Positions 1 to 23,754 of a stretch of DNA of 32,329 nucleotides are shown here, piece after piece. The stretch lies in IMG/VR virus record IMGVR_UViG_3300025327_000011, one strand, 5' to 3'. The stretch is from a virus. How positions within the stretch are numbered: position 1 is the first letter of the stretch; each line of letters starts with the position of its first letter. The notes under the pieces were generated by a model. That model was not told where the DNA came from. It was given only the letters and a program-made list of their open reading frames with translations, and did no database searches. A program made the position numbers and the translations under genes.

Positions 1-127
1 CCCGAGTATAGAGTATTTCCAGAAATAGTGGTTCCAAAAATCGTTGTACCAACAATGGTTCCGCCGTTAACAGTGCCGGTAAAGGTAGCACCGGAGAGGT
101 TGGCTTTTGTTGCAAGTTGTGAATTAA
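1..127. repeat. Terminal direct overlap, identical to 32203..32329 (127 bp). Signature of a circular or terminally redundant contig.
   Basis: Base-by-base comparison by eye shows cccgagtatagagtatttcc...gttgtgaattaa at both ends with no mismatch. It lies inside the fibre-gene repeat array. Confidence 0.95.
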
Positions 128-3100
128 TTAAAGTTATGTTCGCTGGTGTTGCAAATAAAGTTGATACATCTGAAGCACCAGAGTAAAGTGTATTTCCAGA
201 AAGTGCAGTTCCAAAAACTGTTGAACCTGCTATATTACCACCTGTAACTGTACCGGTAAATGTAGCTCCACTTAGGTTTGCCTTTGTTGCAAGTTGCGAA
301 TTGATTAAAGTTATGTTCGCTGGCGTTGCAAATAAAGTTGATACATCAGTTGAACCTGAATGAATAGTTCCGCCTGAAAACGTGCCTCCACTTAGTGAAT
401 ATGCATTGACATTTCCTCCAGCGGTAATTCTCATTCTTTCTGTTGGTGTAGCATTACTAAGTGTTGAATTTCTTGTTCCAAAAATTAAATCTCCAAGTGT
501 GTGACCCACAATACTTTTCTCTTGAAATCCTATATATGCTGGCGCAATATTAGCTAATCCGGAATTATAACCAAATCCTATTAATCTGTAAGAATTTAAA
601 TTATATTCATTACTGCCTAAATGTAAATATGTTGAAGCGCTAATTACTGTTGGTGCAGTTGTGGTATCAGTTGTAGACTGAAATATGGACGATTTAACAT
701 TGTTACTATTTAAAATTTTTAAATCAATACCAAATATAGTTCCACCGCTAATAGTTGTAGAACTAAATGAAGGAGCGTTAACCTGACCTGTAAATGTATC
801 ACCAGAACGATTTGCTTTAGTTAGAAGCTGAGCTGAATGTGTTCCGGCAAGTGCTGCTGAACCGAATAATAAACTTACGTCTGAAGCACCCGAATATAAA
901 GTATTGCCAGAAAGAGTAGTTCCGAAAACTGTACTTCCAGCTATGTTTCCACCAGTAACAGTACCTGTGAAGGTAGCACCTGAAAGGTTGGCTTTTGTTG
1001 CAAGTTGTGAATTAATTGAAGTTATGTTTGCTGGTGTTGCGAATAAGGTTGATACATCAGAAGCTCCAGAGTAAAGTGTATTTCCGGAAAGGATAGTACC
1101 AAATACTGTTGAGCCGGCTATATTTCCACCGTTAACAGTACCGGTAAAGGTGGCTCCGCTAAGATTTGCCTTTGTCGCAAGTTGTGAATTAATTAAAGTT
1201 ATGTTCGCTGGTGTTGCAAATAAGGTTGATACATCTGAAGCACCCGAATATAGAGTATTTCCAGAAATAGTGGTTCCAAAAATCGTTGTACCTGCTATAT
1301 TTCCACCAGTAACGGTGCCTGTAAATGTTGCTCCGCTTAGGTTTGCCTTGGTTAAAAGCTGAGCTGAATGAGTACCGGCAAGTGCTGCTGAGCCGAATAA
1401 TAAACTTACGTCTGTACTTGCTGAAAAAATTGTAGCTCCTGAAACAGTTGTAGCACTAAAAGAAGGAGCGTTGACTTGTCCTGTAAATGTATCACCAGAA
1501 CGATTTGCCTTTGTTAAAAGCTGAGCTGAATGAGTACCGGCAAGTGCTGCTGAGCCGAATAATAAACTCACATCTGAAGCACCCGAATAAAGTGTATTGC
1601 CAGAAAGCACAGTTCCAAAAATCGTTGTACCAACAATGGTTCCACCATTGACAGTACCTGTGAATGTAGCTCCACTTAGATTTGCCTTAGTTGCAAGTTG
1701 CGAATTGATTGAAGTTATGTTTGCTGGAGTTGCAAATAAAGTTGATACATCTGTTGAGCCTGAAATTAATGTTGTAGCAGTTAAAGTCGTAAAAGAACTT
1801 GCTCCTGAAGCTGTAATTGAAGCTATAGATGGCGAATTTACTAAATTAATAGTAGGATTATTTGCAGTTCCACCTGTTGTAATATTAGTTCCAGGTTGAA
1901 CTCTGGTTATATCATTTCCATCATTAGTGGTTAAAAAAATATTATATAGATTTGTATTTCCAGAAAGTAAAATCCCTCCATTAATTGTTCCTCCACTAAT
2001 TGTAGTTGCACTTAAAGAAGGAGCGTTAACTTGTCCTGTAAATGTAGCTCCACTTAGGTTTGCTTTGGTTGCAAGTTGAGAATTAATTAAAGTAATATTA
2101 GCAGGTGTTGCAAACAGGGTTGACACATCTGTTGAGCCTGAAATAAAAGAACCATTTGTTACTGAAATGTTTCCACCATTAACAGTTATAGCTGAGGTCA
2201 ATATTTCTGTATTTGCAGACCAAGCACCTTTTGAATCAATTGTCCAAGTTGACGCGACACCGTTTGTTAATCCTGATAAAACTGAAATTCCACCATTTAA
2301 CGCACTTAAATGTGAACCTGAAAGATTCATTACAATATTATTATCAGAAGTTTGAACCGTTGCTGTATTGAAAGTTGTTGCTGTTCCAAGAACATCTACA
2401 TTTCCATAAATTTGAATCGAACCATTAACTGTTAATCCTGTTGTGCCTTGAGTTAAAATAGAATTTCCCAAAACTTTATTTCCATTCCAAAGCGGAATAG
2501 TATTTGTTGAACCAGAACCTTGAATAAATATATTTTCAATATTTGTTGAGCCTGAAATTAATGTACTTGCAGATAATGTTGTAAACGAACTTGCTCCTGA
2601 TGATGATATTGAGTTAAAACTCGGAGAATCAACTACATTAATAATTGGAAGATTTGCAGTTCCACCGGTAGTGATATTACTTCCAGGTTGAACTCTTGTT
2701 ATATCTTCAATTCCAGAAGCTAAATTTGAAATAATTGTTTCTAAATTTGTTGAGCCTGAAAAAAATGTTGTTGCAGAAATACCATTTGTTGATATTCCAC
2801 TTAATGAAATTAAATTTGGAACATAAACAGTATTTGCTATATTCGCTGAAATATTATCTCCAAAAATAAATGTTGATTTTAAACCAGAATCAATTGTAGA
2901 ACCAGAACCAACAATCATCGAACGAGGAGAGCCTGCTCCTATTATTAAATCTCTACCAACTGCTATTGAATTTTGTGAACCATAATCAATAAACACTCCT
3001 TGTCCACTTCCAATTCCTCCTGTTGATAAAATTTTTGGTCCACCAACAGCAACAACTTGCACAGGGTCACCTGGATTATTCCATGGGTGATAAATAGAAG

Positions 3101-5360
3101 TACTTGTAGTTGTACTTACAAATTTTTCTTTTAATTTAATTAATTCAACTTTTGAACTTTCATTTGATGTTGGAGAATAATTAATTGAATTTACTATAAA
3201 ATAATGTCCCGCTCCATCTTCACTTATTCCATCAATAAAAATAGAATCGCTGAATTTAAAATCATTGATATCTTGTGGAGTTAAATAAATATTACAAGAA
3301 ATTATTCTTGAATCTTTATCAGCAATACCATCGAGATAAGTTTTCCAATGTGCATTTATTAAATTATTATCAGTAATTGAATCTAAATTATAATATTCAT
3401 AATCAACTTTTCCAAATGCGATATCAGTAGTCCCTGTTGAAGGATGATTTAACATTCCTAAATAAGGAAAATAAGTTTGAGTTTGACCACTTAATAACCA
3501 AGAATCAGCAGAAGGTAAAGGTAATATATTTGCAGTATTTTTTTGTAAAATCCTAATATTAAAATCAGTTCTCCCAAAATTTTTATTTGAATCTTTCTTT
3601 CCTATTTTAGGAATAACAAATTCATTTACAGTAGAAGAACTAGATAATGACGATTCGTGAACTGATGCAGAAGGTGTTGGAGAAAAAATAACTTCTATTT
3701 TTTTCTCACCATCAATAAATTCATTATCAATTATAAAATATTCATCTCCAAATATTCTGGTGGTTGTTGTTTTATAGTCTTCATTGTAATAATCTTTATC
3801 TTCTTTATAAGTAAAAATTATTTTTTTATTTTGTTGTTCTGATATTAATTTTTGACTTATTGGAAATTTTAAATCCAATTTTTTTGTCCAATCTTTTGTT
3901 CTTAATCCTCTTGAAAAATAAGTATCACGAGGTTCTACTATTATTTTTTTTGTATTATCTTTAACAGGATCAAGATAAAGATTATGCATGTAAATTAATG
4001 AGTTTAAAAAATCTTTTTGCTTAATCTTTTTTGGAACAATACCATTAAATATTAATGTTTGTCCGGGTAAAGCTTTTGTAGAAACTTTATTATAAAAATT
4101 AGTTCCGACAGAATATAAGTTATAATTTAAATCACCTCCTGCTCCTACTACGTTTATTTTTGTGTCAAGTCTAATTGTAACATAAAAAAGTTCTCCTGGT
4201 TGAACTACTCCAAATTGAGTTCCAACATTTCCATCTAAAGGTGGTGTTAAATAAGTTTTTAGTTTTCTATTGTTTAATATTATATCTCCATTAAATGTAT
4301 TTAAAACATCTGATTGTGAATAAAAACTTCCCTCAAATCCACCTGAATAAGTTGAACGGTAAAATTTAATAATAACATTTGATATTACAGGAGCAACATT
4401 TGTATTACTTCTTGTAAATTCCTCATCTAAAGTTATTGAAAACTGTTGAACAGAAGATGTGTCTGCTGAATATTTATAAATTGTTGTATCATATAAATTT
4501 CCATTATCAAAATAAGGAGCCGGAGTTTCTTTATTTAATGGTATTGTAATTTGATCTGTGAAATCCTGTAAAATACCTGCAGTTAAAGTTTTTGTTAAAG
4601 TATAATCAGTACTTATGCCAACATCAAAACTTCTTCCTGTTGCAAAAGAATTATCTTGATTTAATTCAGTTGTTCCGTTAAATGGAATATATAAATTTGT
4701 AAAATAAGTTCCGGATAAAAAAGTTGAATCATAACTATAACCGGCAGCAGAAAATATTCTATCAACTATGGTTTTTACTTGTAAAGCAGGAAACATTTCT
4801 TCCGCTTTAACTCCCATCCCGATATTCATATCAGTTATATTTAAATCATAACCATAATCAATAAGTGGATAAAAATATGATTGATTTGAGCCTGTCCAAG
4901 ATAATGTTATTCCTGAATAATCCCAAACGTGATTTAAATCAGAGAAATCTAAATCTTCAATATAGGCATCTCCAATATTTTTAAATAAATCCTGACTTTC
5001 AGAAAAAATAGTAACTTGATAATCTATTTTTTTATTTTCATTAACAGCAATTCCTACCAATTGAAAAACACCATTTTGCATTACAGGTATTGAATCAACT
5101 GCTAAGTATGCTGGTGTTTTTTTCCTTGCATCAAAAGTGCTATCAGAACCAATATTAAATATTTGAGTAAGTAATCTATTATTTTTTTCAGAACCTTGTA
5201 TAGTAAAACTTTGTGTATATGGTGCACTTCGTTTTGAAATATCTTTTATGTCCGAAATAGACATTTTAATATTTACCGGTTCGTCTCCATAAGTATCTAA
5301 AAATCCAACAGAATTTGTTGAAGCAGTGCTAATTAATCCAAGTTCTAATTTATTTTCCAT
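1..5360 (-). CDS. Giant tail-fibre / receptor-binding protein, N-terminal portion. It starts at ATG 5358..5360, is open to the window edge, and continues at 32202 across the circular junction.
   Basis: Hand translation from 5360 gives MENKLELGLISTASTNSVGFLDTYGDEPVNIKMSISDIKDISKRSAPYTQSFTIQGSEKNNRLLTQ... with no stop in the first 66 codons. Codons at 3..62 read ...GTIVGTTIFGTTISGNTLYS in the same phase. The ORF track lists no closed minus-strand ORF in 1..5363, as expected if this frame has no stop inside the window. The start lies 4 nt after the stop of the upstream gene (5364). I did not hand-check every codon. Confidence 0.8.
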   Translation of the reverse strand, partial: MENKLELGLISTASTNSVGFLDTYGDEPVNIKMSISDIKDISKRSAPYTQSFTIQGSEKNNRLLTQIFNIGSDSTFDARKKTPAYLAVDSIPVMQNGVFQLVGIAVNENKKIDYQVTIFSESQDLFKNIGDAYIEDLDFSDLNHVWDYSGITLSWTGSNQSYFYPLIDYGYDLNITDMNIGMGVKAEEMFPALQVKTIVDRIFSAAGYSYDSTFLSGTYFTNLYIPFNGTTELNQDNSFATGRSFDVGISTDYTLTKTLTAGILQDFTDQITIPLNKETPAPYFDNGNLYDTTIYKYSADTSSVQQFSITLDEEFTRSNTNVAPVISNVIIKFYRSTYSGGFEGSFYSQSDVLNTFNGDIILNNRKLKTYLTPPLDGNVGTQFGVVQPGELFYVTIRLDTKINVVGAGGDLNYNLYSVGTNFYNKVSTKALPGQTLIFNGIVPKKIKQKDFLNSLIYMHNLYLDPVKDNTKKIIVEPRDTYFSRGLRTKDWTKKLDLKFPISQKLISEQQNKKIIFTYKEDKDYYNEDYKTTTTRIFGDEYFIIDNEFIDGEKKIEVIFSPTPSASVHESSLSSSSTVNEFVIPKIGKKDSNKNFGRTDFNIRILQKNTANILPLPSADSWLLSGQTQTYFPYLGMLNHPSTGTTDIAFGKVDYEYYNLDSITDNNLINAHWKTYLDGIADKDSRIISCNIYLTPQDINDFKFSDSIFIDGISEDGAGHYFIVNSINYSPTSNESSKVELIKLKEKFVSTTTSTSIYHPWNNPGDPVQVVAVGGPKILSTGGIGSGQGVFIDYGSQNSIAVGRDLIIGAGSPRSMIVGSGSTIDSGLKSTFIFGDNISANIANTVYVPNLISLSGISTNGISATTFFSGSTNLETIISNLASGIEDITRVQPGSNITTGGTANLPIINVVDSPSFNSISSSGASSFTTLSASTLISGSTNIENIFIQGSGSTNTIPLWNGNKVLGNSILTQGTTGLTVNGSIQIYGNVDVLGTATTFNTATVQTSDNNIVMNLSGSHLSALNGGISVLSGLTNGVASTWTIDSKGAWSANTEILTSAITVNGGNISVTNGSFISGSTDVSTLFATPANITLINSQLATKANLSGATFTGQVNAPSLSATTISGGTINGGILLSGNTNLYNIFLTTNDGNDITRVQPGTNITTGGTANNPTINLVNSPSIASITASGASSFTTLTATTLISGSTDVSTLFATPANITSINSQLATKANLSGATFTGTVNGGTIVGTTIFGTVLSGNTLYSGASDVSLLFGSAALAGTHSAQLLTKANRSGDTFTGQVNAPSFSATTVSGATIFSASTDVSLLFGSAALAGTHSAQLLTKANLSGATFTGTVTGGNIAGTTIFGTTISGNTLYSGASDVSTLFATPANITLINSQLATKANLSGATFTGTVNGGNIAGSTVFGTILSGNTLYSGASDVSTLFATPANITSINSQLATKANLSGATFTGTVTGGNIAGSTVFGTTLSGNTLYSGASDVSLLFGSAALAGTHSAQLLTKANRSGDTFTGQVNAPSFSSTTISGGTIFGIDLKILNSNNVKSSIFQSTTDTTTAPTVISASTYLHLGSNEYNLNSYRLIGFGYNSGLANIAPAYIGFQEKSIVGHTLGDLIFGTRNSTLSNATPTERMRITAGGNVNAYSLSGGTFSGGTIHSGSTDVSTLFATPANITLINSQLATKANLSGATFTGTVTGGNIAGSTVFGTALSGNTLYSGASDVSTLFATPANITLINSQLATKANLSGATFTGTVNGGTIVGTTIFGTTISGNTLYS
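790..1760 (-). repeat. Second coding tandem array of two alternating fibre repeat types (ANLSGATFTG and ANRSGDTFTG units).
   Basis: Motif copies lie near 790, 965, 1141, 1318, 1480 and 1657, with 162-177 bp spacing. The block gagctgaatg.gt.ccggcaagtgctgctga.ccgaataataaact recurs near 830, 1360, 1520, 30910 and 31790. Confidence 0.8.
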
Positions 5361-5363
5361 TTT

Positions 5364-6959
5364 TTAATTTCTTTGTCCATTAAATTTTGAAGCAAGTTTA
5401 TAAGAAAAACTATAATTAAATAATTTATCATTTAGAGAATTTTTTACTTCAAAATTTGATTCATCTAATATTATTGGTGTCGCTGTTCCATCACTATTAA
5501 TTACAAATACTTCCGGAGAAGTAATTAATTCTTCTAACCAAACACTTTCCACATCTGAAATCCAATCAGATGTTACTTTATAAGAATATTGGCCATCAAC
5601 ATCTAAAACAGTGCTTCCACGGTCTCCCAATTGATAATTATAATCAAGGACTTTACGATAAGTATTACGAGTAACGCTTATCGTTTTTTTAGAAACTAAA
5701 TTGAAATTAAAATAATCAAAGCCTCCAAGTCTGTTTAAAAATTGTAATCTAACAGTAGAATATTTTCCGCATTTTGTATCAATTAAATAGGTTTTTACTT
5801 CTGAAATAGTGCTTCCATTATCTGCATTTAGTGAATATTTATAATCAGTTGAAAGATTTATTGTAGCTCCGGAATTTGGAAGATTATTTAAATTCCAAAT
5901 TCCTGATGGAATATGTACAACAGAATCTGAAGTTATACCTGTATTTGCTAAATAATAAGTCTTAGTTCCACCTGAATTTTGGTAAGTTATAAGTTTCATT
6001 CTTGTTGCAGCGCTATAAATTTGCATAAATGATAAAGTTCCTCTATCAGTAGAATTTTTTATATAAACTTCCGCTGGCTGATTTGTTAAAAATTTCTTTG
6101 TTGACCCTCCCATTAAATAATCTGAATAATTCCAAGAAGGTATTTGCTCATATTGATTTACACCATTAAAAGTATAGCCTGAGAAAAAAGTAAGTGCTGA
6201 ATAAATTGTCACTCCTGTATTTAATGTTCCATATTCCTCACCTATTTTTAAAATATAAGGAATCATATGTTTATTTGAATTTGTTGGCTCTACAATGTTT
6301 TGAATTCTTGCATCGCATCCTAAATAAGATTCTAATATACGAGCAGGAGAAAATATACAATTTCCTGTTGAACCTGGTCTTGGTAAAAGCTTTACTCTTG
6401 CTTGAGCATTGCCTCCACCTGTGTTTCCAGTAAAAATATCAAATACATATTTGTAATTAGGAAAGCTATAAAAAATCGATAATACATTAAAATAAATAGG
6501 ATTATAAACCGGAGCAATAAATCCTTGACTTGCTCCAGTAAAAGATGAAATAATAATACTTGAACAATCTTTTACAAAATCTATGTTTGCGGAACCTTGA
6601 CGAATATTAAAAGTTAAAGTTGCATTTCCAACCGCTGCTCCAATAGCTAAAGAAATACCAGTAGTTGTAATTGTTGTTGCAGTAGCTGTTCCAAACATAA
6701 CATCAATAGCAAATGGAGAAGATGCTCCTAAAATATTAACTTCTATTATATGAGAAGTTGATGTGCCAAAATCAGTAAAAACATTTGTTTGAAATAAAGT
6801 ATTATCTCCTGGTGAAACATAATTTCCATCTGCTCCATTACTTAATGGATAAGTATCAGAAGGTGTCCATGCGGCGTTTGCTCCTATACCCCAATTTGTA
6901 AATGGGCTTCCTGTACCGTTATCTAAAAGTGTTGGATTTAAAATTGAAATATTTGCCAT
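5364..6959 (-). CDS. Virion structural protein (putative tail or baseplate component), 531 aa.
   Basis: Long ORF immediately upstream of, and nearly abutting, the fibre gene. It is beta-rich, with a Ser/Thr/Asn/Gly-rich composition. No diagnostic motif was recognised. Confidence 0.35.
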   Translation of the reverse strand: MANISILNPTLLDNGTGSPFTNWGIGANAAWTPSDTYPLSNGADGNYVSPGDNTLFQTNVFTDFGTSTSHIIEVNILGASSPFAIDVMFGTATATTITTTGISLAIGAAVGNATLTFNIRQGSANIDFVKDCSSIIISSFTGASQGFIAPVYNPIYFNVLSIFYSFPNYKYVFDIFTGNTGGGNAQARVKLLPRPGSTGNCIFSPARILESYLGCDARIQNIVEPTNSNKHMIPYILKIGEEYGTLNTGVTIYSALTFFSGYTFNGVNQYEQIPSWNYSDYLMGGSTKKFLTNQPAEVYIKNSTDRGTLSFMQIYSAATRMKLITYQNSGGTKTYYLANTGITSDSVVHIPSGIWNLNNLPNSGATINLSTDYKYSLNADNGSTISEVKTYLIDTKCGKYSTVRLQFLNRLGGFDYFNFNLVSKKTISVTRNTYRKVLDYNYQLGDRGSTVLDVDGQYSYKVTSDWISDVESVWLEELITSPEVFVINSDGTATPIILDESNFEVKNSLNDKLFNYSFSYKLASKFNGQRN

Positions 6960-6996
6960 TTATTGTTTATTATAAATATAAATTTAATTTATTAGT

Positions 6997-7275
6997 TTAA
7001 AATGATTTTTCTATCTGCCTTACTAATTCTGATTCTACAAATTCTATGAATTCATTTGAACTTAATACTTCTGATGATATTTTATGCTTTTCATCCAAAA
7101 ATTTAAAATAATCTTCTCCTAAAACATTAAAAGAACCATCATTATTTGCTATAACTTCTATTGAATTTAAAAGCTTGCCGGATTTAACTAAATCTTTTTC
7201 AATTATTTTTTCTTTAATTAATTTTTCAATTAATTTAGCAGTTGGATTCCAATCTATTTTAAATTCGTTTTTCAT
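6997..7275 (-). CDS. Hypothetical protein, 92 aa.
   Basis: ORF in the structural operon, 6 nt downstream of the preceding gene. No motif recognised. Confidence 0.5.
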   Translation of the reverse strand: MKNEFKIDWNPTAKLIEKLIKEKIIEKDLVKSGKLLNSIEVIANNDGSFNVLGEDYFKFLDEKHKISSEVLSSNEFIEFVESELVRQIEKSF

Positions 7276-7281
7276 AAAAAA

Positions 7282-8253
7282 TTAAGATATAGGTAATGAG
7301 CAATAATTTGTCGGCTTTTTTAATTTAAATTCCAATGTGCAAGCCCAGCCGGAAACTTCTTCATCACTCCATTCTTCTAATGGATCTAAATTTATATCTC
7401 CAACCAATGTTAAAAATCCTAATTGATAAAAAGAATGCTCATTTATTTCTGTTATTATATCACTAATCATTTGAAATGTGTCGCTATGAGCATCATCTTG
7501 ATTATCAGTTGATTTATTTACAAGGTCTAATACTTTTAAGTTAATAAAAAATGATTTTGATGGATATGAGCCAGAAATTTCACTTTTAGGATACGTTCCA
7601 TTTGATAATTGAACATACATTGCTGGATATACTGGCTTTAATGAAGTTGCAAAATTATAATCTTTGCCATGGCCGAATGTATTTAATTGAAAATGTCTTT
7701 CTTGAATATCTTTTAAAACTAAAAGTACTTGATTATAAGTAAGGATTTTCCCATCAGGTATAGCAGGAATTGGAGTGCTTGAACTAAATGGTAACCCGCA
7801 GAATGAATTTTTATTTTTTAACCTAAATGTTATTTGTGTTTTAAATCCTGAAAGTTCTTCATCACTGAATTGTTCTAATGCTTCGAAATTAATATCTGAA
7901 TTGATAGAAACAGAATTTTCAATATAATTCTCGTTTTCATTTATTTCAGTTACAATATCACTTATTATTTGCTCACAATCTGAATAAACATCACTAATAT
8001 TATTAAGTCCTTTATTAACTAAATCTAAAACCTTAAGTTCAACAGTAAAATCCTTACTATTGTATGAATCATTTGCTTCTGATTTATAAAACGTACCAGA
8101 TATTGGCGTTATAAATAGTATTGGATATATATACTTAGTTGAACCGGCGAAATCTTCATCTTTTCCTATATCAAATGAATTTATTTGGCGGTGATTAGAC
8201 GCAATTGAACGAAGTTCAGAAATAATTTGATTATATGTTAGAATTGTACTCAT
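7282..8253 (-). CDS. Structural protein made of two homologous halves (internal tandem domain duplication), 323 aa.
   Basis: Residues 4-160 and 170-323 align by eye. ILTYNQIISELRSI...FDIGKDEDFAGS...YPILF...ELKVLDLVNK...IISDIVTEINE...FCGLP matches ILTYNQVLLVLKDI...FGHGKDYNFATS...YPAMY...NLKVLDLVNK...MISDIITEINE...YCSLP. Confidence 0.6.
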   Translation of the reverse strand: MSTILTYNQIISELRSIASNHRQINSFDIGKDEDFAGSTKYIYPILFITPISGTFYKSEANDSYNSKDFTVELKVLDLVNKGLNNISDVYSDCEQIISDIVTEINENENYIENSVSINSDINFEALEQFSDEELSGFKTQITFRLKNKNSFCGLPFSSSTPIPAIPDGKILTYNQVLLVLKDIQERHFQLNTFGHGKDYNFATSLKPVYPAMYVQLSNGTYPKSEISGSYPSKSFFINLKVLDLVNKSTDNQDDAHSDTFQMISDIITEINEHSFYQLGFLTLVGDINLDPLEEWSDEEVSGWACTLEFKLKKPTNYCSLPIS

Positions 8254-9172: not shown

Positions 9173-10438
9173 TTATTGAAATATAAATGAGCCGGAATAT
9201 TGATTTTGTTTCATACAATAATAACCAATTGCTAATGACATAATTATATCATCGTGCCCGTAATTGGCTTGGTATGTTACATTTCCTTTTTTTGATATTG
9301 AATAACCAAATGCTTCCATTTCTGAAATAATATTTGGGTCATTTAACAATTGAATTTTTCCTCCATTGAAATCATAAATCAAATCATTTATTATTAATGG
9401 TTTAGAAGTAGAAGTTGTAGCGAATCCTTCAACTTGATATGCTCCACGTGAAATTAATTGCTCTATTATTGGTAAACCAAATGAGTTCGATTCTATATAG
9501 CACTTACAAACCCGAAATAGGTTAAGTGACGAGACTATTCTACGTAATATCTCATCATTACTTGTTTGATTAAATCTATCTATATATACAAGCTCTGCTC
9601 TTTGATTAAATATAGATATAACAGTAAAGTCATTCTTAAATCCTACATCGATTCCCGCGAAGTAAGTTTCTGAATCACGTGGTCCGGATAACTTATTTAA
9701 CTTCGTAAAATCCTTTATGTTTTTAAATAAACTACCACCATCGACAAACTCTGCCATATATTCTTGTTCGAAAATATCGATAGGCAGGATTTTTCTTTGT
9801 TGCTCAATAAACTCGATATTTGCATACGGATTATCAATATATGTAGTTTTAAAACTTTTAAAAGATTTATTCTCAGGGTCTTTTCCTTGTAAAAAAAGTT
9901 TATAGAAAAAATTCTTTCCACGAGGAGTTGAACCAAAGATTACTTTTTTTCCGCGAACTAATAGTGTGGGTGCCAATATAGTTGTCCAAGTCTCCTCATA
10001 AACAAATGCACACTCATCCATTAATAAATGTGTATTACTGTAGCCTCGAAGAGAATTTGTGCTTGCCGCTGACCTAAAAAGTATAACCGAACCATTAGTA
10101 AATGCTATTTCACTATCGCCAGCCTGTATTTTATAGGATTTAACATATGGTAAATGTATAATTGAATTTAAAATCTGCTTATATATCTTTTTTGATTGAG
10201 AATCTACCGGAGAAACAACCATTATATGTTGGTCGTTTAGATTTAAGGCATAATATACTGCCATATTTTGCATCAGAAATGTCTTTCCTGATTGTCTACT
10301 TGCATTATAGACTATATATTTGGTAGTCAGGTCTATACAAGTTTTTACTATCTCTTTTTGAGCCTCATAAGGCGTGAAAAGTTTTAATGTTGTTTTTTGA
10401 TTTGGTTCCATAAATGTATGTGGCTCGTGTGTGAGCAT
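9173..10438 (-). CDS. terL: Terminase large subunit, 421 aa.
   Basis: Walker A-like SRQSGKT, Walker B-like HLLMDECAF, and C-terminal RNase H-like nuclease acidic motifs GIDVGFKNDFTV and GHDDIIMSLA. It lies downstream of terS. Confidence 0.85.
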   Translation of the reverse strand: MLTHEPHTFMEPNQKTTLKLFTPYEAQKEIVKTCIDLTTKYIVYNASRQSGKTFLMQNMAVYYALNLNDQHIMVVSPVDSQSKKIYKQILNSIIHLPYVKSYKIQAGDSEIAFTNGSVILFRSAASTNSLRGYSNTHLLMDECAFVYEETWTTILAPTLLVRGKKVIFGSTPRGKNFFYKLFLQGKDPENKSFKSFKTTYIDNPYANIEFIEQQRKILPIDIFEQEYMAEFVDGGSLFKNIKDFTKLNKLSGPRDSETYFAGIDVGFKNDFTVISIFNQRAELVYIDRFNQTSNDEILRRIVSSLNLFRVCKCYIESNSFGLPIIEQLISRGAYQVEGFATTSTSKPLIINDLIYDFNGGKIQLLNDPNIISEMEAFGYSISKKGNVTYQANYGHDDIIMSLAIGYYCMKQNQYSGSFIFQ

Positions 10439-10495
10439 ATATTATTAAATAGATTAAAAAAAAATAATATATGTTGCTGATTAATAGGATTTTAC
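10439..10495 (-). promoter_or_regulatory. Promoter candidate for terL. The minus strand reads GTAAAATCCT, 19 nt, TATTTTTT, then ..TCTATTTAATAATAT-ATG.
   Basis: Same architecture and spacing as 16464..16519, including the shared leader TCTATTTAATA. Confidence 0.5.
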
Positions 10496-10631
10496 ATATT
10501 AATGTTAATATATGACTCAATTTTTAGGTTCTCTTCAGAGCTTGACTGGGCGAGGCTCCAAAAAAAGATTTACGTAAACCCAGCTTCACTCAGTAAAATC
10601 CTGATGAGCTTATATAAATTCAAAACCAGAA

Positions 10632-10667
10632 CGTAAAATCCTGTTGATGGCTCCAATATCCAGAATA
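10632..10667 (+). repeat. 36-nt direct repeat A1: cgtaaaatcctgttgatggctccaatatccagaata.
   Basis: Matches 11081..11116 at 35 of 36 positions. Confidence 0.9.
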
Positions 10668-10768
10668 TACCAAGGGCTCTTCAGTAAAATCCTACAGCTC
10701 TTCAGCACAATCCTATAGTTTTACTTGCCTAATCCAATAATGTTAATAACTTTTTATAACTTTTAAAA

Positions 10769-10798
10769 CTCATCATACCTCATCATACCTCATCATAC
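10769..10798 (+). repeat. Perfect tandem repeat, 3 x ctcatcatac.
   Basis: Read directly from the sequence. A single related copy, cctcatcata, lies at 10991..11000 upstream of repeat B2. Confidence 0.9.
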
Positions 10799-10815
10799 AC
10801 TTTAAGTTAAGGTTC

Positions 10816-10849
10816 ACTTAATGAGTAACTACTCTAAGTAGGATTTTAC
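10816..10849 (+). repeat. Repeat B1: acttaatgagtaactactctaagtaggattttac.
   Basis: Aligns with 11020..11054 (acttaatgagttactacatctaaataggattttac), with one indel and three mismatches. Confidence 0.8.
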
Positions 10850-10859
10850 GTAAAATCCT
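10840..10859. promoter_or_regulatory. Perfect 20-bp palindrome AGGATTTTAC|GTAAAATCCT. Candidate operator or dimer-binding site.
   Basis: Read directly. It consists of two abutting half-sites of the over-represented decamer. Confidence 0.6.
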
Positions 10860-11019
10860 TTTACTATTTATAACCCACACATACTGGAATATCGATTGTT
10901 GATAACTTTATTTATACTTGCGTATAACCAGTGCATTTACGAATGTTTGTAAATAATTTGTGGCACGATTATTGGCTGGCATAGTTATTGCCTCATCATA
11001 AACTTAGAGTTAAATACTT

Positions 11020-11054
11020 ACTTAATGAGTTACTACATCTAAATAGGATTTTAC
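11020..11054 (+). repeat. Repeat B2, partner of 10816..10849.
   Basis: See B1. Its terminal AGGATTTTAC (11045..11054) forms a 10-bp inverted repeat with GTAAAATCCT at 11082..11091, with a 27-nt spacer. Confidence 0.8.
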
Positions 11055-11080
11055 TTCGGCCTTTGGCACCAGTCTCTAAT

Positions 11081-11116
11081 CGTAAAATCCTGTTGATGGC
11101 TCCAACATCCAGAATA
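11081..11116 (+). repeat. 36-nt direct repeat A2: cgtaaaatcctgttgatggctccaacatccagaata.
   Basis: Matches 10632..10667 at 35 of 36 positions. Confidence 0.9.
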
Positions 11117-11128
11117 CTATAATATTTC

Positions 11129-11284
11129 TCACTCAGTTTTGGATTTTTCAATAAAGTTATTTGTTTGTGTTTGAATGTTTTGAATTAGTTCGAAACTTAT
11201 TTTTGCTGGCAATTCAGCAATTCCAGCTAAAATGATGTTAACTTGTTCAAGTGTTAGGTCTAATTTAATTTCTTTACTTTTCAT
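11129..11284 (-). CDS. Small hypothetical protein, 51 aa (below the track threshold).
   Basis: Hand translation gives MKSKEIKLDLTLEQVNIILAGIAELPAKISFELIQNIQTQTNNFIEKSKTE, then TGA. The ATG lies 39 nt downstream of the terS stop, on the same strand. Confidence 0.4.
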   Translation of the reverse strand: MKSKEIKLDLTLEQVNIILAGIAELPAKISFELIQNIQTQTNNFIEKSKTE

Positions 11285-11322
11285 AGTTTTTTAAATTTAT
11301 TAATTTATTGTTTTAATTCATA

Positions 11323-11769
11323 TTATTCTTCCGAATCGGATATTTCATCTTTAAAATAATTTTCAATTTCTTTATCAGTTAAAAGTTTTGGAACATCAAG
11401 GTCTGGAAACTTTAATTCTAAATTTAGAGATTGAACCTGGATTTTACTTGCTTCGTTGAAGCCCAGCATTCTATTTATTATCTCTAAGGCTTTTAAACTG
11501 GCCATGGAGTTTTGGTTCTTCTGAGCGTTTTTGATATCTAAAAGGTCTTGAAGTATAGATTCTCGGGTAATCTGGGATTTTAGAGCCAGCTGAGCCTTTT
11601 GGCGAGTTATTTCTTGTTGAATGCTATCTTTTGCAAGTAAATCAGAAGATAAAGATCTTGCACTATCATAACTAACTCCTTCATATGCAGACATATAAGA
11701 ATGAACAGCAACTCCTGTTTTAATATACTCATCAATGAATGCTTGTTGTTTTATGTTAATTACTTCCAT
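11323..11769 (-). CDS. terS: Terminase small subunit, 148 aa.
   Basis: N-terminal QQAFIDEYIKTGVAVHSYMSAYEGVSYDSARSLSSDLLAKDSIQQEI resembles the Terminase_2-type HTH (F..EY......A...AGYS...A......LL..P.v...I). It lies upstream of terL. Confidence 0.75.
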   Translation of the reverse strand: MEVINIKQQAFIDEYIKTGVAVHSYMSAYEGVSYDSARSLSSDLLAKDSIQQEITRQKAQLALKSQITRESILQDLLDIKNAQKNQNSMASLKALEIINRMLGFNEASKIQVQSLNLELKFPDLDVPKLLTDKEIENYFKDEISDSEE

Positions 11770-11785
11770 TTTATGTTAATGTTGT

Positions 11786-11817
11786 GTAAAATCCTGTTAT
11801 TTGTATTGTAAAATCCT
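11786..11817. promoter_or_regulatory. Two GTAAAATCCTGTT copies 22 bp apart, immediately upstream of the terS start.
   Basis: The copies are at 11786..11795 and 11808..11817. On the coding (minus) strand they read AACAGGATTTTAC. Confidence 0.5.
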
Positions 11818-11833
11818 GTTTATTGTGCTTATT

Positions 11834-12538: not shown

Positions 12539-13138
12539 TTAAGTTTGTTTTTGTATTTCTTTTTGTATTATTTCTCTGGCATTTTTTACATAAGAATGTA
12601 CGGCCATTAAACTTATTCCTGTTTTTTTAGCAATTTTTCTATATGTTAAGTTTTCGTTATAATACATTCTAAATAACTTAAAGTCTCGTATAAGAATAGG
12701 AATTTCTTTTGTTTTTTGTTCAACAATTGAGTCAATTAGGTTTATTTTATTTTGAATTTTATCCTGCAATTCAATTTCAAATTCAGTTTCCTCAGTTATT
12801 TCCTCTATTTGGAAGTTTTCAATATCTTCGTATAAACCAAAACCATCTTTTTTTCTCATTTGATAATGCCAACGACTTGTTGAGCTGCATACATTATTTT
12901 TAATCATTTTTATGTAAATCCATTTAAAGAAACCATTATTCCAATAAGTTAATACTTTTGGCATTTCACATATAGATAAGTGAAGCATTTGTCTAAATTC
13001 ATTTCTTTCATCTTTTTTAGGAAGAAACTTATGAAGTATTTCCTCATAAAAAGAATCATTTGATATTAAATAAAACATTTTAGTTAAAGTATCTGCAGTT
13101 AAAGTATTAATAGTGCTTGCTGTTATAGTTATTTTCAT
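12539..13138 (-). CDS. Putative transcription factor with a sigma-70 region-4-like C-terminal HTH, 199 aa.
   Basis: The C-terminus LTYRKIAKKTGISLMAVHSYVKNAREIIQKEI resembles a sigma region 4.2 / LuxR-type HTH. The N-terminal part is not clearly region 2. Confidence 0.45.
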   Translation of the reverse strand: MKITITASTINTLTADTLTKMFYLISNDSFYEEILHKFLPKKDERNEFRQMLHLSICEMPKVLTYWNNGFFKWIYIKMIKNNVCSSTSRWHYQMRKKDGFGLYEDIENFQIEEITEETEFEIELQDKIQNKINLIDSIVEQKTKEIPILIRDFKLFRMYYNENLTYRKIAKKTGISLMAVHSYVKNAREIIQKEIQKQT

Positions 13139-14031: not shown

Positions 14032-14706
14032 TTATTTAAATTGTTTAGCTAATTTTGAGTTCTTTTTTAATAATTCAAGCATAGTTTTAAGTCGCCATTT
14101 ACAAAGAGAATCTGATATTCCTATTTTTTTACTTATTTCATTTGTTGATTTTAATTTTTCAAAACCAAACAATCCAAATCTATAGTATAAAATTATTTTC
14201 CAGTCTTCTTTTTTTATAAGTTTATTTATAGCTCGGTATAACACATCAAAATCCCTTGAAGTATCTTCTTCTTCAGCTTGTGTAATGTCATCTATTATTT
14301 CTTGTCCGGAAGTACAAATAGGAAGTTCTTCTTCTTCAGTTTCTGATTCTGGATTAGGTGCACAGTACTCTTTATTCTTTTTAAAATAATCTGATAATAT
14401 GTTTTGCGGAATTCTTATAGTTCTTTTGTTTTGCATTAACCAAGTTAACATCTCTCCTCTTACGTGTATTTTTGCGTATGTGATGAAATATACTCCTTTT
14501 TCTGGACAAAAATCTTGCATTGCATTGTAAAGTCCAATATTTCCCATTTGAATTAAGTCATCAAGGTATTCTGGATTATGAAGTGCATTAGCTATTTTAT
14601 ATATGAACCACTTATTTTTAGACAATAGTTTTTCGAAATCCTTTTTTATTACAAGGCTCACATTTTCTTCGTTTAATTCTTTAAGTTGTTCTTTAGTGTA
14701 TTTCAT
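14032..14706 (-). CDS. Sigma-70 family RNA polymerase sigma factor, 224 aa from the internal ATG at 14706.
   Basis: Region 2 motif LIQMGNIGLYNAMQDFCPEKGVYFITYAKIHVRGEMLTWLMQNKRTIRIPQNI (compare DLIQEGNIGL..A...F....G..FSTYA...IR..I........RTIRIP). Region 4 HTH ISKKIGISDSLCKWRLKTMLELLKK. The track start at 14772 would place a conserved upstream element inside the coding sequence. Confidence 0.8.
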   Translation of the reverse strand: MKYTKEQLKELNEENVSLVIKKDFEKLLSKNKWFIYKIANALHNPEYLDDLIQMGNIGLYNAMQDFCPEKGVYFITYAKIHVRGEMLTWLMQNKRTIRIPQNILSDYFKKNKEYCAPNPESETEEEELPICTSGQEIIDDITQAEEEDTSRDFDVLYRAINKLIKKEDWKIILYYRFGLFGFEKLKSTNEISKKIGISDSLCKWRLKTMLELLKKNSKLAKQFK

Positions 14707-14710
14707 TTTA

Positions 14711-14740
14711 CTTAAATAGTACAGGAAAAAGTAAAATCCA
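14711..14740 (-). promoter_or_regulatory. Conserved upstream element, copy 1. The minus strand reads TGGATTTTACTTTTTCCTGTACTATTTAAG.
   Basis: A 24-nt core, TTTTACTTTTTCCTGTACTATTTA, is identical to 16749..16772 (plus strand). It ends 4 nt before the sigma-factor ATG. Confidence 0.55.
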
Positions 14741-14821
14741 ATTCTATTAACAAAGTCGTTGGTTATTAACAAAATCGGAAATACTGTATTTAAATAGAAT
14801 TATAGGACAGTTAATAAAAAA

Positions 14822-15166: not shown

Positions 15167-16213
15167 TTATTGAATTAAGATTACTTCTCCTTCTGTTGAA
15201 TTAAGATTAAAGTATACTTTTATATCAGCAATAATAGTTTGCCTTTCATTTGTATTTAATCTTGTTTCTTTTGTTTCTATATCAAATATTATTTTATTGA
15301 AAAGAATATTCCTTTCTACAAAAGATAAAGAAGAGATTATTTCAGGTGGATTTTGAGTAGTTACTTCATTCCAGATATATTCTTCTGTTCTTATTACATT
15401 ATTTTCAATTGCAGGCTCTTTTTTAGTTATTGTATATTTATTTTCTTGAACCAATTCTTTTTTTTCAGCTGAATTATAAATATGTTTATTTACTCTTTTT
15501 GTTAAAATAGATTTATCTGTTGAATTAATAGTATTTGATTTATCTATATACGATTTTATTTCATTGAATAAAGGAAGTTTTGTTTCTAAAGCATCAATTG
15601 TTTCTCTTGTATGTTTTTCAATAAATCCTGCGAAAAACTTTTCAGCTCTTTTTTCACTTATCTGTTCCGGAGTTAAAATCTCTTTTTCAATTAATTCAAC
15701 TGGCTCTTCTTTTTTAATTTCAACTTCAAATTCCGGAATTTCAATTTTCTTGTTTAGGTTAATATTATTTATGTTAGTCTTGTTTAAATTAATATTATTT
15801 AAGTTAGTCTTATTTATACCTCGATTTACCATAGATGGTTCAGCCATAGATGGTTCAGCCATAGATGGTTCAGCCATAGATGGTAAATCGCTATATGGAT
15901 TTAGCTCGAAAGACCACTGGATTTGCCCTTTTTCATTTTTAGTTCTAACTCTTTTTGCGTAGTTTTTAGCTATTAATTTGTTATAAATTGCCCTCTGAAT
16001 TAGTTCAGAATTAGTGCTTCTTTTATAGATTTCTGTGATAAAAACCTTCCATTCTTTTGAATTAGAAATTAGAATAGAAAGTAATCCTTTTTCTTCAAGA
16101 CTTAAAGTTTTATTATTTAAGATTGAGTTAGGAACTTTAGTAAAACCCTTTAGGTTTGTTTTAGATTTTTTTGTGGTTTTTGTGGCAATATTGCCAGATG
16201 TTGGTGTTTCCAT
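15167..16213 (-). CDS. Putative replication initiator / DNA-binding protein (winged-helix N-terminus), 348 aa, with internal tandem repeats.
   Basis: The N-terminal FTKVPNSILNNKTLSLEEKGLLSILISN pattern is typical of phage/plasmid Rep or replisome-organiser N-terminal domains (F..vPn.il.d..Ls...kgl). It sits next to iteron-like repeats and is the only replication-type gene seen. Confidence 0.45.
   Translation of the reverse strand: METPTSGNIATKTTKKSKTNLKGFTKVPNSILNNKTLSLEEKGLLSILISNSKEWKVFITEIYKRSTNSELIQRAIYNKLIAKNYAKRVRTKNEKGQIQWSFELNPYSDLPSMAEPSMAEPSMAEPSMVNRGINKTNLNNINLNKTNINNINLNKKIEIPEFEVEIKKEEPVELIEKEILTPEQISEKRAEKFFAGFIEKHTRETIDALETKLPLFNEIKSYIDKSNTINSTDKSILTKRVNKHIYNSAEKKELVQENKYTITKKEPAIENNVIRTEEYIWNEVTTQNPPEIISSLSFVERNILFNKIIFDIETKETRLNTNERQTIIADIKVYFNLNSTEGEVILIQ
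15829..15885 (-). repeat. 15-bp in-frame tandem repeat, ccatagatggttcag x 3.8, encoding (PSMAE)n.
   Basis: Read directly. The protein shows LPSMAEPSMAEPSMAEPSM. An adjacent imperfect repeat of about 27 bp x 2 (15757..15815) encodes NLNNINLNKTNINNINLNK. Confidence 0.9.
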
Positions 16214-16463: not shown

Positions 16464-16500
16464 GTAAAATCCTATAAATAAAACCTAATCAATAATTTTG
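16464..16500 (+). promoter_or_regulatory. Promoter candidate: GTAAAATCCT, 19 nt, then TAATTTTG (-7 box). The box ends 19 nt upstream of the ATG at 16520.
   Basis: The TAnnTTTG consensus of Bacteroidota sigma-A promoters is matched at 16493..16500. The decamer occupies the -33 position. Confidence 0.55.
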
Positions 16501-16519: not shown

Positions 16520-16744
16520 ATGACTGAAGAAGAAATATCAAAAACAAGGCTAAACTATCTTAAAGATAAGTTTGATGAAAAATATTCAATTGAATCATTA
16601 TCCAGATTAGTTGGAATTTCACGAATTAAGAAGTTTTCTGAAATAATCAGTGCAATATATTTAAAAGAAAAATCTCTTTTAGATGAAGATAGAAAAAAAT
16701 TGGGTCGTTTTATTAGTAAATATTTTTATCCAAATAGAGAATAA
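16520..16744 (+). CDS. Small HTH DNA-binding protein (Cro/XRE-like early regulator), 74 aa.
   Basis: SIESLSRLVGISRIKKFSEI resembles a helix-turn-helix. It is the first gene of the divergent plus-strand cluster. Confidence 0.5.
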   Translation: MTEEEISKTRLNYLKDKFDEKYSIESLSRLVGISRIKKFSEIISAIYLKEKSLLDEDRKKLGRFISKYFYPNRE

Positions 16745-17161: not shown

Positions 17162-17353
17162 ATGAATAACTGTAGTGATATACCATTAAACTGTTTTTTT
17201 GAAACAAAAAAAGATTTTAAAAATCTCGTTCAAACACGGATAGTAATATTTGAAAAGTATAATGAAAAGATTGAAAAGTATAATGAAAAGATAAAAACAG
17301 AGTATTTTATTTTGAAACAAAGAATATATTCAAACACGGATAGTAATATTTGA
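17162..17353 (+). CDS. Small hypothetical protein (63 aa as it stands). Its frame is terminated inside a 100-bp tandem duplication.
   Basis: Track ORF. See repeat 17229..17387. The +1 frame after the duplication stays open to 17462. Confidence 0.4.
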   Translation: MNNCSDIPLNCFFETKKDFKNLVQTRIVIFEKYNEKIEKYNEKIKTEYFILKQRIYSNTDSNI

Positions 17354-17387
17354 AAAGTATAATGAAAAGATAAAAACAGAGTATTTT
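17229..17387 (+). repeat. Tandem duplication, copy 1 at 17229..17308 and copy 2 at 17329..17387, offset exactly 100 bp. Copy 1 has a nested 21-bp duplication (17250..17270 = 17271..17291).
   Basis: ttcaaacacggatagtaatatttgaaaagtataatgaaaaga and taaaaacagagtatttt both occur twice. Read directly. Confidence 0.9.
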
Positions 17388-17468: not shown

Positions 17469-17678
17469 ATGAACTATGACGATTATACTTTCGAAGAAAA
17501 AAAGAAAGAACGTACACAAATAAATATCGATATAAAAGACAGAGGAAGATATCTTATGTGGAGAGCATTGTGTAAAAACAATGGCTGGAACCAATCATAC
17601 ATAATAAGAGAATGTTTATTTGAACTTATGGAAAAAGCAATAAAAGAAAATAACAACAAACAAAATGAAAATAACTAA
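17469..17678 (+). CDS. Ribbon-helix-helix (CopG/Arc-like) DNA-binding protein, 69 aa.
   Basis: The putative beta-strand TQINIDI is followed by two helices (RGRYLMWRALCKNNGW, QSYIIRECLFELMEKAI). Pattern call by eye. Confidence 0.45.
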   Translation: MNYDDYTFEEKKKERTQINIDIKDRGRYLMWRALCKNNGWNQSYIIRECLFELMEKAIKENNNKQNENN

Positions 17679-17754: not shown

Positions 17755-17782
17755 TCCTGCTTTATCAGGTTATAAAAAAGTA

Positions 17783-17831
17783 AAATCCTGCAGATTTAGT
17801 CACTCATTTTATGCAGGTTTTATTTTTTTTT
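17783..17831 (+). terminator. Intrinsic terminator closing the plus-strand early cluster.
   Basis: Stem CCTGCA (17787..17792) pairs with TGCAGG (17812..17817), followed by TTTTATTTTTTTTT. Confidence 0.7.
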
Positions 17832-23124: not shown

Positions 23125-23754
23125 TTATTTGTTATTTTTTGATTCTCTAATTTCAACAATTCTATTAAAAGTTGTTGATTTTTTTGTTTGTTTTACTTCT
23201 TCTTTTGCTTCAACTTTTTTGAAGTTTACAGCAGGAGTTGCAGGTTCTGCACTTAATTCTTTTACTTGTTTCTTCAGATTTTTATTTTCTTTAGTAACTT
23301 CTTTCATTTCTGATTCCATTTGCATTCCACCTGCATTACACATGTCAATACATTTTTTTATTTCTTCAGAAAGTAAATTTATTGCTGCTTCAAGTTCTGC
23401 ACATTTTGTTTCGATTGCCGTAATCTTATCAGTTTCAGGAGCTTCAGTTACTGGAGTTTCTAACGCTGGAGTTTCTTCTGCCATTTCTTCTTCTGGAACT
23501 TCCGGAGCAACAATTTTTATAATTGCACCTGTTCCGTCTGTTGAAATTATACTTCCATCTTCTAATTCATAATCAGCAGCTCCTACTATTTGAACTGAAC
23601 CATCTTCTGATAATTGAGAAACAATAGAACCTTCTTTCAATTCTCCATCTACTCTTAATATTAAACCATCTTTAGTTTTAACATCAGCACATTTTGTTTC
23701 TTGTGGTGTTTTTTCTGCTTCAAAAAGCAATTTGATTTTATCAATTAAACTCAT
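23125..23754 (-). CDS. Scaffolding protein, 209 aa.
   Basis: Acidic, with a coiled-coil segment (AELEAAINLLSEEIKK...KNLKKQVKEL). Positioned between the protease and capsid genes. Confidence 0.55.
   Translation of the reverse strand: MSLIDKIKLLFEAEKTPQETKCADVKTKDGLILRVDGELKEGSIVSQLSEDGSVQIVGAADYELEDGSIISTDGTGAIIKIVAPEVPEEEMAEETPALETPVTEAPETDKITAIETKCAELEAAINLLSEEIKKCIDMCNAGGMQMESEMKEVTKENKNLKKQVKELSAEPATPAVNFKKVEAKEEVKQTKKSTTFNRIVEIRESKNNK

Follow-up and report, generated by a model that had tools for sequence, protein, structure and literature searches.

A gene-free array of a ten-base word between terS and terL of a phage genome and its recurrence in related phages and in large viral contigs

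Lambda cosB consists of the sites R1-R3 for gpNu1 together with the IHF site I1, and P1 pac of seven hexamer repeats together with an IHF site. The present analysis concerns a comparable arrangement in IMG/VR virus record IMGVR_UViG_3300025327_000011, a stretch of 32,329 nucleotides (hereafter the window). Here, the genes of the small and large terminase subunits, terS and terL, are separated by a 690-bp gene-free island with repeated copies of the word (A/T)GGATTTTAC, which reads GTAAAATCCT on one strand and AGGATTTTAC on the other and is referred to as the decamer. The known sites and the island have in common clustered short repeated words, protein-binding in the former and putatively so in the latter, that occur in both orientations near terminase genes and are joined by a second box. 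This anatomy, i.e. clustered short sites beside packaging genes, is of a known type. Lambda cosB and P1 pac make use of a host architectural protein, whereas such use is a proposal only in the case of the phage island. Moreover, the word of the island does not track TerS, its array lies between terS and terL rather than upstream of or inside terS, and the island is absent from close relatives while recurring in unrelated large contigs.

In SPP1, a non-coding stretch that breaks the conserved late gene order likewise carries protein-bound repeats (PMC6316719). The TerS proteins of SPP1 and the window belong to the same Pfam family, PF03592. Conversely, the pac site of SPP1 coincides in part with the 5' end of terS, unlike the window array, and the repeats of SPP1 oriR are those found in the initiator gene, whereas the iterons of the window, CCATAGATGGTTCAG, are unrelated to the decamer. 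Clusters of DnaA boxes and the 11/12-mers of Vibrio RctB resemble the array as 9-12 bp single-protein sites of sharp borders, mixed orientation and irregular spacing, and share with the decamer a dense occurrence in one non-coding region with lone sites in promoters and genes. Still, the decamer is not a DnaA box, the genome holds a separate origin-like array, and no initiator is linked to the decamer. The arm-type sites of lambda attP (10-bp Int sites plus IHF) are another case of sites that measure ten bases and are read by a single protein; they occur in both orientations within a few hundred base pairs of non-coding DNA, among the sites of a second protein. The window differs in that its genome is without a clear tyrosine integrase, its decamers spill into the flanking genes, and large contigs carry the array. 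Chi and DNA uptake sequences are, like the decamer, sharply bounded words common to unrelated replicons of one host, embedded in codons, over-represented, strand-biased and present as inverted pairs, but the decamers are extremely clustered in one island and of mixed orientation there. The combination reported below, comprising an invariant 10-mer kept down to a TerL identity of 37% and in unrelated large contigs, an optional gene-free island to which the word is strictly tied, and coding copies under selection, was not found described in the literature.

The window contains 15 exact copies of the decamer against 0.17 expected, eight of them within the 690-bp terS-terL gap; the expectation was derived from 100 dinucleotide-preserving shuffles, none of which held more than one copy. 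Allowing up to one mismatch, 38 copies were counted as compared to 4.3 expected. The preliminary description of this DNA had called the word too frequent for chance, which these numbers bear out. The ten positions it listed are all exact (GTAAAATCCT on the + strand at 10593, 10633, 10684, 10850, 11082, 11786 and 11808; the complement at 10486, 10840 and 11045), although five further exact copies (at 3545, 8045, 9705, 16464 and 17780) had been missed. A comparable enrichment of AT-rich 10-mers in general, which would have spoken against a packaging or regulatory array, was not seen: the decamer is the most frequent 10-mer of the window, and every low-complexity A/T 10-mer has at most 10 copies. 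An alignment of 81 copies from five loci revealed that the flanks are uninformative and that no partner element keeps a constant distance from the word. Such sharp borders without a fixed-distance partner fit a site for a single protein (or another single reader) and not a two-part promoter. A role as general promoter or expression signal was rejected on account of the missing partner and because the genes have a TATTTAYAW box of their own. Searching the literature for the decamer returned primer coincidences only.

For comparison, relatives defined by TerL were divided into carriers and non-carriers of the decamer. Among the carriers, L001-L004 represent one phage, with a TerL 75% identical to that of the window and a terS-terL gap of 452 bp holding five decamers. 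In L011 (TerL 59%), the gap measures 682 bp and contains eight exact decamers and one GTAAAATCCA variant; in L034 (TerL 37%), 268 bp accommodate four exact decamers and one GTAAAATCCA variant, the island being bracketed by two head-to-head decamer pairs with a 1-nt spacer. In every carrier, the decamer ranks first among the 9-mers or 10-mers of its locus, and the carrier islands are not alignable with one another. In the non-carriers, namely L005, L014 (TerL 63%), L015 (58%), L016, L017 and 20 more distant ones, terS abuts or overlaps terL, the distance between the two ranging from -29 to 69 nt. The decamer's 9-mer is entirely absent from about 220 kb of these 25 relatives. Equivalent islands built on another word were not found in the non-carriers either; the repeats of L017 are early-region iterons, and those of L016 and L012 are coding. 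As carriers have both the island and the word and the 25 relatives have neither, the two are gained and lost together, and their distribution over the TerL tree is patchy. An array at the terS-terL junction of related phages, for which the preliminary description had suggested an alignment, was thus encountered in L002, L011 and L034, but not in the 25 non-carriers. The conservation of the word, its sharp borders and its tie to the island are counted as established.

The same word forms islands in viral contigs of a very different size, which were sampled as pieces of 8-11 kb. A 212-kb IMG/VR contig (IMGVR_UViG_3300025319_000005; L029) has a 1.1-kb island with ten exact decamers and one TGGATTTTAC variant, closed by a long hairpin with a T-run. 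A second decamer cluster of this contig (L018) lies 120 kb from L029 and includes three direct decamers about 135-200 nt upstream of a small open reading frame (ORF). Its other matches are to an HNH endonuclease, to a phage endonuclease I domain and, weakly, to the major capsid protein of T4 type; by blastn, phage tRNA-gene regions were matched as well. A 519-kb contig (3300014205_000170; L207) and its relative L086 likewise have an island, about 1 kb long and flanked by divergent genes; in L207, a DNA ligase gene is nearby. Among the matches listed in a pattern scan of metagenomes, most were chance pairs or unrelated tandem repeats, and L086 was the one true island. No protein in common with the window phage was detected in the sampled stretches of the 212-kb and 519-kb contigs.

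Some further repeats were noted in these large contigs. At gene junctions, the 212-kb and 519-kb contigs have in common the intergenic sequence GTACTATACGAAWTTTAAATCTTAGGTGTTACA, about 33 nt in length (L207 2484..2520, 4251..4294 and 5379..5415; L029 814..850 and 5952..5995). It looks like a phage-specific promoter, and its shared presence suggests that the two elements are related. A repeat TTACCACTTTATACCAC(T) adjoins decamers in the islands of L207 (6930..6975 and 7270..7295) and L086 (around 970..1000). Matches in L210 and L212 (IMGVR_UViG_648019610_000001, GC content 0.55) were rejected as a sequence coincidence with an unrelated, GC-rich element similar to repetitive extragenic palindromes (REP-like). 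In this element, the decamer forms the loop of the hairpin GGCGGACGCGT-AGGATTTTAC-GCGYCGGCC, with about 10 repeats per 7-10 kb and 17 of 19 copies in the same orientation.

Genes contain decamers, too. When eight terL genes were aligned by codon, the copies of the carriers fell in common columns, at 297 encoding V-K-S as GTA AAA TCC and at 727 and 808 encoding K/Q-D-F-T. They are made by codon choice or, in KKDFT, through a substitution to F. Even with one mismatch allowed, the decamer is missing from the five non-carrier terL genes, whose codons or residues differ at those columns. This pattern clearly indicates selection at the DNA level on the coding decamers of terL, acting through the choice of codons and amino acids. 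Within terS, the decamers of different lineages are found at non-homologous positions, which argues for repeated independent gain. Decamer density declines away from the island: of the 38 window sites with up to one mismatch, 20 fall between 7.7 and 12.5 kb, and the rest of the genome is still about five-fold over chance. Clustering near the island was also observed for L011, L002 and L034.

The island of the window shows several levels of organisation (Table 1). Its description as non-coding was corroborated, with 7-17 TAA stops in each of the six frames and no ORF above 51 amino acids (aa). The number of TAA stops also rules out a hidden gene under another genetic code. A split terL or an intron at the island was rejected, as TerL aligns over its full length with relatives and no intron model matched. 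As regards genome ends, the examined contigs that carry terS or terL run through the island unbroken. The gap is the largest of the genome, as had been stated, but not the sole large one (others measure 394, 306, 233 and 195 bp). The small ORF next to the island has no family match; if it is not a real gene, the gene-free stretch extends to 884 bp.

The reported 20-bp palindrome, inverted pair with 27-nt spacer, direct spacings of 40 and 51 bp and 3x10-bp tandem repeat are all present. Repeat A was found as described, whereas repeat B extends over about 62 nt rather than about 35 nt. A CRISPR-like or solitary-repeat interpretation of the 36-nt repeat A was discarded, since it has two copies only, 449 bp apart, and its homology ends one base past the decamer. 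The strain variant L214 is without one 51-bp unit (10633..10683) that is bounded by two direct decamers. Together with the repeat ends at decamers, this loss can be explained by recombination between identical 10-mers, for which no transposase is needed; the array gains and loses units at the decamer. Four contigs of the same phage are identical throughout the region. A later set of contigs contained one unit-sized indel and five single-nucleotide polymorphisms, none of them in a decamer, which is not significant.

Table 1 Features of the terS-terL junction and further decamer sites (window coordinates; a dot denotes features given without strand)
Feature	Position	Strand	Remarks
terL	9173..10438	-	Terminase_6N / Terminase_3 (PHROGs and Pfam)
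terS	11323..11769	-	PF03592 (PHROGs and Pfam)
51-aa ORF beside the island	11129..11284	-	called as a gene in this phage only; reality uncertain
Gene-free island	10439..11128	.	from terL start (10438) to 51-aa ORF and terS; biggest intergenic gap of the genome
Decamer AGGATTTTAC	10486..10495	+	antisense to genes
Decamer AGGATTTTAC	10593..10602	-	gene-sense
Decamer, outer end of repeat A copy 1	10633..10642	-	gene-sense
Decamer	10684..10693	-	gene-sense
Head-to-head decamer pair, perfect 20-bp palindrome	10840..10859	.	followed by TTTT on the + strand
Inverted decamer pair, 27-nt spacer	11045..11091	.	
Two direct decamers, 22 bp apart	11786..11817	-	located 16 and 38 nt before the start codon of terS
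Repeat A copy 1, 36 nt	10632..10667	.	homology ends one base past the outer edge of the decamer
Repeat A copy 2	11081..11116	.	35/36 identical to copy 1
Repeat B copy 1, about 62 nt	10788..10849	.	ends exactly at decamer
Repeat B copy 2	10991..11054	.	
Perfect 3x10-bp tandem repeat CTCATCATAC	10769..10798	.	
Second shared box TGTTAATAACTTT (gene sense AAAGTTATTAACA)	10741..10753	+	also in L002, L029 and L034 islands
Second-box variant TGTTGATAACTTT (gene sense AAAGTTATCAACA)	10897..10909	+	
TGGCACGATTATTGG followed by TGGCATAGTTATTGC	10961..10991	+	TGGCATAGTTATTGC = 10977..10991
Decamer within terL	9705..9714	-	encodes K-D-F-T; same alignment column as L002 copy
One-mismatch decamer within terL	10135..10144	+	encodes V-K-S; column shared with exact copies in L002 and L011
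Lone decamer, divergent early control region	16464..16473	-	between rep-like gene and small + strand genes
Lone intergenic decamer	17780..17789	-	overlaps 5' arm of terminator-like hairpin
Lone decamer inside gene 7282..8253	8045..8054	-	
Lone decamer inside giant tail-like ORF	3545..3554	-	

The decamer is accompanied by a second box, GTTATYAACA, with the palindromic core GTTAnTAAC; the C variant of the box contains TTATCAACA. It occurs in most islands, at no fixed spacing to the decamer. The form GTTATCAACA is shared by the window island and those of L029 (twice), L034 and L086, and the L002 island has the longer form TGTTAATAACTTT in two exact copies and one mismatched copy. The element TGGCATAGTTATTGC is the sole exact match of the genome to TGGCAY-N5-TTGC, with a spacing like that of -24/-12 promoters for sigma-54; a second reading of it is palindromic, GGCA-N7-TGCC. 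Its direction is antisense to the terminase genes; it is kept in the L002 island (5067..5081, -) and absent from the islands of L011, L034, L029 and L207. Exact copies of ATAA-N6-TTATGTTAA, a sequence similar to a Xer core of the dif type with TTATGTTAAAT as an arm, were observed in the islands of L011 (9624..9642) and L034 (8611..8629) and in an early non-coding gap of the non-carrier L017 (3754..3772). A Xer (dif-like) site with a 28-bp core was searched for in the window island and not found, matches with up to two mismatches being at chance level. The window genome contains no clear integrase, a weak PHROG match (E 2e-4) within 23125..23754 being the only indication.

TerS would be the obvious candidate for a reader of the decamer. 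The TerS of the window is 49-53% identical to that of L014, which is without the motif, as compared to 36%, 31% and 28% for the carriers L002, L011 and L034. Within the helix-turn-helix region of TerS, no residues were seen that set the carriers apart. In these alignments, which bear on binding indirectly, TerS does not co-vary with the decamer. Nor was any other protein confined to carriers in the regions sampled. As the identity of TerS does not track the word, TerS is an unlikely reader, and we consider it fairly probable that the decamer is read by something else. The reader is probably supplied by a common host, or by a gene moving among phages; this is the simplest explanation for a word shared with large contigs in whose sampled stretches no common protein was detected.

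The island as a whole is most likely a cis-acting array of putative protein-binding sites, where binding of a protein to the decamer is what we infer from its sequence properties. In the mechanism favoured here, a sequence-specific protein would read (A/T)GGATTTTAC as a single 10-bp site, in the company of the GTTATYAACA box. The 8-10 sites in both orientations and at irregular spacing could load many copies of this protein, which would then assemble into a large protein-DNA complex at the terS-terL junction. Additional selected sites in the flanking genes would increase local occupancy, and isolated sites in the early control region would allow the same protein to be used for regulation. The array might thus act as an accessory or architectural aid in starting or controlling packaging, similar to the IHF sites at lambda cosB and P1 pac. 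Since the array occupies precisely the terS-terL junction in four separate lineages, a role connected with the terminase is indicated, although this role could equally be control of terminase expression. A link to packaging is suggested by position and is possible rather than probable. The complete proposal of an optional, gene-free array for a shared factor with an accessory role in packaging is put forward tentatively, at somewhat less than even chances. In the order of preference, the accessory role in packaging comes first, at the low probability assigned to the packaging link; then come regulation (as platform or sink), an origin or barrier to forks, a signal resembling Chi, and lastly a selfish or RNA element.

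Several observations weigh against this proposal. Close relatives package their DNA without the island, so it cannot be an essential pac site. No recognisable terminase gene is located beside the islands of the large contigs, and the packaging link may not be general. The notion of a host-supplied reader depends on the word being common to large contigs that were sampled as pieces of 8-11 kb, in which a small shared phage protein could be missed. Known architectural proteins, IHF among them, have far less strict sites than the decamer with its ten invariant positions. The copies show marginal helical phasing (resultant 0.35-0.44 at 10.4 bp for 21-24 spacings, with many periods scanned). Finally, gene-sense AGGATTTTAC is favoured by 44 to 20 over four lineages, or about 2:1. 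This strand bias hints at a directional process, e.g. transcription, a translocase or an exonuclease, and is left unexplained by the model.

The leading idea of the preliminary description was a pac or cos recognition region with repeats bound by TerS; in such a model, rings of TerS on the decamers would position TerL to cut nearby. Its positional basis stands, as in four lineages the array separates terS from terL and terS is bracketed by additional copies. The exact 127-bp end overlap of the circular assembly fits headful packaging, and TerL is of the T4-like Terminase_6N type. The anatomy resembles that of P1 pac and lambda cosB. The same can be said of SPP1 pacL/pacR (PMC6316719). What found no support is the connection to TerS itself: the closest TerS is that of the decamer-less L014, the 25 relatives are without island or copy, the large-contig islands have no terminase gene nearby, and isolated copies reside in the early control region. 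We regard this explanation as unlikely. Rather unlikely, too, is that the decamers are operator or enhancer sites of a host or phage regulator that tunes the late promoters of terminase and the early promoters, with the island titrating this regulator or driving antisense or non-coding transcription. The two direct decamers that closely precede terS both in the window and in L011, a decamer abutting the start codons of both terS and terL in L002, the lone copy between divergent early genes, and the three direct copies upstream of a small ORF in L018 are all in line with such a function. So are the facing TATTTAYAW boxes in the island, the 2:1 sense bias, and the position of TGGCAY-N5-TTGC downstream of the palindrome and a GTTRATAAC box, an order reminiscent of activator site, bend site and -24/-12 promoter. 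This sigma-54-like element is nevertheless missing from four of the islands (L011, L034, L029 and L207), no conserved element keeps a fixed distance from the decamer, and a TATTTAYAW box already precedes the start codons of the genes by 2-22 nt. Moreover, selected coding copies and a density gradient over several kilobases would be unusual for operators.

A second replication origin or a fork barrier, with the decamers as short iterons, was also proposed for the island, and its non-coding nature, short sites in both orientations and AT-rich tract (10440-10480) agree with this assignment. GTTATCAACA contains TTATCAACA, one mismatch from a DnaA box, and the L207 island is found between divergent genes near a DNA ligase gene; in SPP1, oriR and fork stalling in the late region set a precedent (PMC6316719). 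The alternative is disfavoured because the rep-like gene (15167..16213, -) holds an array of its own, 3.7 copies of CCATAGATGGTTCAG at 100% identity (15829..15884), unrelated to the decamer, and because DnaA boxes are not enriched (10 observed, 11.4 expected). Sites of 10 bp with irregular spacing and mixed orientation differ from tandem iterons of about 17-22 bp, and relatives do without the island, which makes an origin function quite improbable. About the same low likelihood is assigned to the island as a selfish or structural element, either as miniature transposable units with 10-bp terminal inverted repeats or as structured non-coding RNAs with inverted decamers as stems. Repeats A and B end at a decamer (A one base past its outer edge), the strain variant differs by one decamer-bounded unit, and the L034 island is bracketed by head-to-head pairs; in addition, the + strand folds better than shuffled sequence (z = -3.7), and a long T-run hairpin closes the L029 island. 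However, breakpoints at decamers are expected from 10-mer recombination anyway, lone genic copies arose by point changes and not by insertion, and no conserved interior, transposase, target duplication or dispersed full units were found. The gene-sense strand reached only z = -1.7, and inverted decamers alone could explain both scores. No Rfam match was obtained at gathering thresholds, and permissive ones (E up to 5, on 10300-11900) gave chance-level matches only, which speaks against the RNA alternative raised earlier; the islands are, moreover, not alignable for covariation. Least likely of all, and very improbable in our view, is a host-specified polar signal of the Chi type that would tame the host exonuclease RecBCD or AddAB and be concentrated where terminase leaves an unpackaged DNA end. 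Such a signal would account for a sharply bounded word common to unrelated phages, for its genome-wide enrichment, including inside genes by codon choice, and for the strand bias of 44 to 20. Upstream of the island, a count from the positions gave 14 copies in one orientation versus 5 in the other. Conversely, known Chi sequences are 5-8 nt long and G-rich, orientation is mixed within and downstream of the island, and the head-to-head palindromes and the second box would be unexplained. Large T4-like phages normally protect their ends otherwise, and no decamer-rich host genome was present among the metagenome matches listed.

With regard to the wider genome, the window represents a complete phage genome in which positions 1..127 are repeated exactly at 32203..32329, giving a circle of 32,202 bp. 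Almost all genes are on the minus strand. A giant minus-strand tail-like ORF crosses the circle junction and carries 177-bp (59-aa) tandem repeats; near the window end these coding repeats are about 76% alike, as opposed to the exact 127-bp overlap. No tRNA or tmRNA genes were found. Samples that contain this phage include ERZ27254756 and JGI 3300025119. By DNA comparison, no cultured relatives were found, and TerL, portal and sigma proteins were matched only distantly. A TerL scan of a genome collection returned just two distant contigs of metagenome-assembled genomes. Shine-Dalgarno sequences are lacking on the window genes, which hints at a Bacteroidota-like host. About 12 genes have the TATTTAYAW box 2-22 nt before the ATG (e.g. 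at 6978, 8270, 9112, 14007, 17145, 20980, 24506 and 26712), probably as a phage promoter or translation-start signal, and the facing pair in the island is located at 10865 (+) and 10955 (-). Two sigma-factor-like proteins are encoded on the minus strand (12539..13138 and 14032..14772); one matches Sigma70_r4 only and the other phrog_351 and Sigma70_r2. Repeats extend across the end of the small + strand gene 17162..17353 (17229..17376), namely one of 48 nt, whose copies are 96% identical and separated by 100 bp, and a set of 21-bp tandem repeats. The proteins called HTH (16520..16744) and RHH (17469..17678) in the preliminary description measure 74 and 69 aa, respectively. In the rep-like gene (15748..15884), the CCATAGATGGTTCAG array includes an internal palindrome, CCAT-AG-ATGG, and adjoins a 30-bp AT-rich repeat of 2.3 copies; by analogy to lambda O and SPP1 oriL (PMC6316719), it is read as an origin within the initiator gene. 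The non-carrier L017 has four 22-bp tandem iterons with a TTTTAAGACCGCTT core (2989..3075) in a 1.4-kb early non-coding gap, which are probably its origin or operator.

The occurrence of one word in otherwise unrelated genomes allows for a more far-reaching, if doubtful, interpretation, in which the decamer serves as a common currency of unrelated phages within one uncultured host group. Landing pads without genes would then have arisen independently in small tailed phages, in a 212-kb phage and in a 519-kb element, all of them for one factor. Candidates for this factor would be an architectural protein of a new, sequence-specific kind and a controller that acts on a DNA-processing machine in the manner of Chi. 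The pad, inserted repeatedly at the terS-terL junction of small phages, would represent a new class of portable gene-free module whose sole defining trait is a host-read word. As to annotation, repeat arrays beside terS should not automatically be taken as pac: here TerS does not track the repeats, and close relatives manage without them. The terL copies illustrate that selection at the DNA level can place sites within an essential gene by codon and amino-acid choice. If the link to packaging is true, host-dependent accessory control of headful packaging would be worth study. If one factor reads the word in unrelated phages, the decamer would provide a handle to find a DNA-binding protein of an uncultured host group, and it could then link phages to their hosts in metagenomes.

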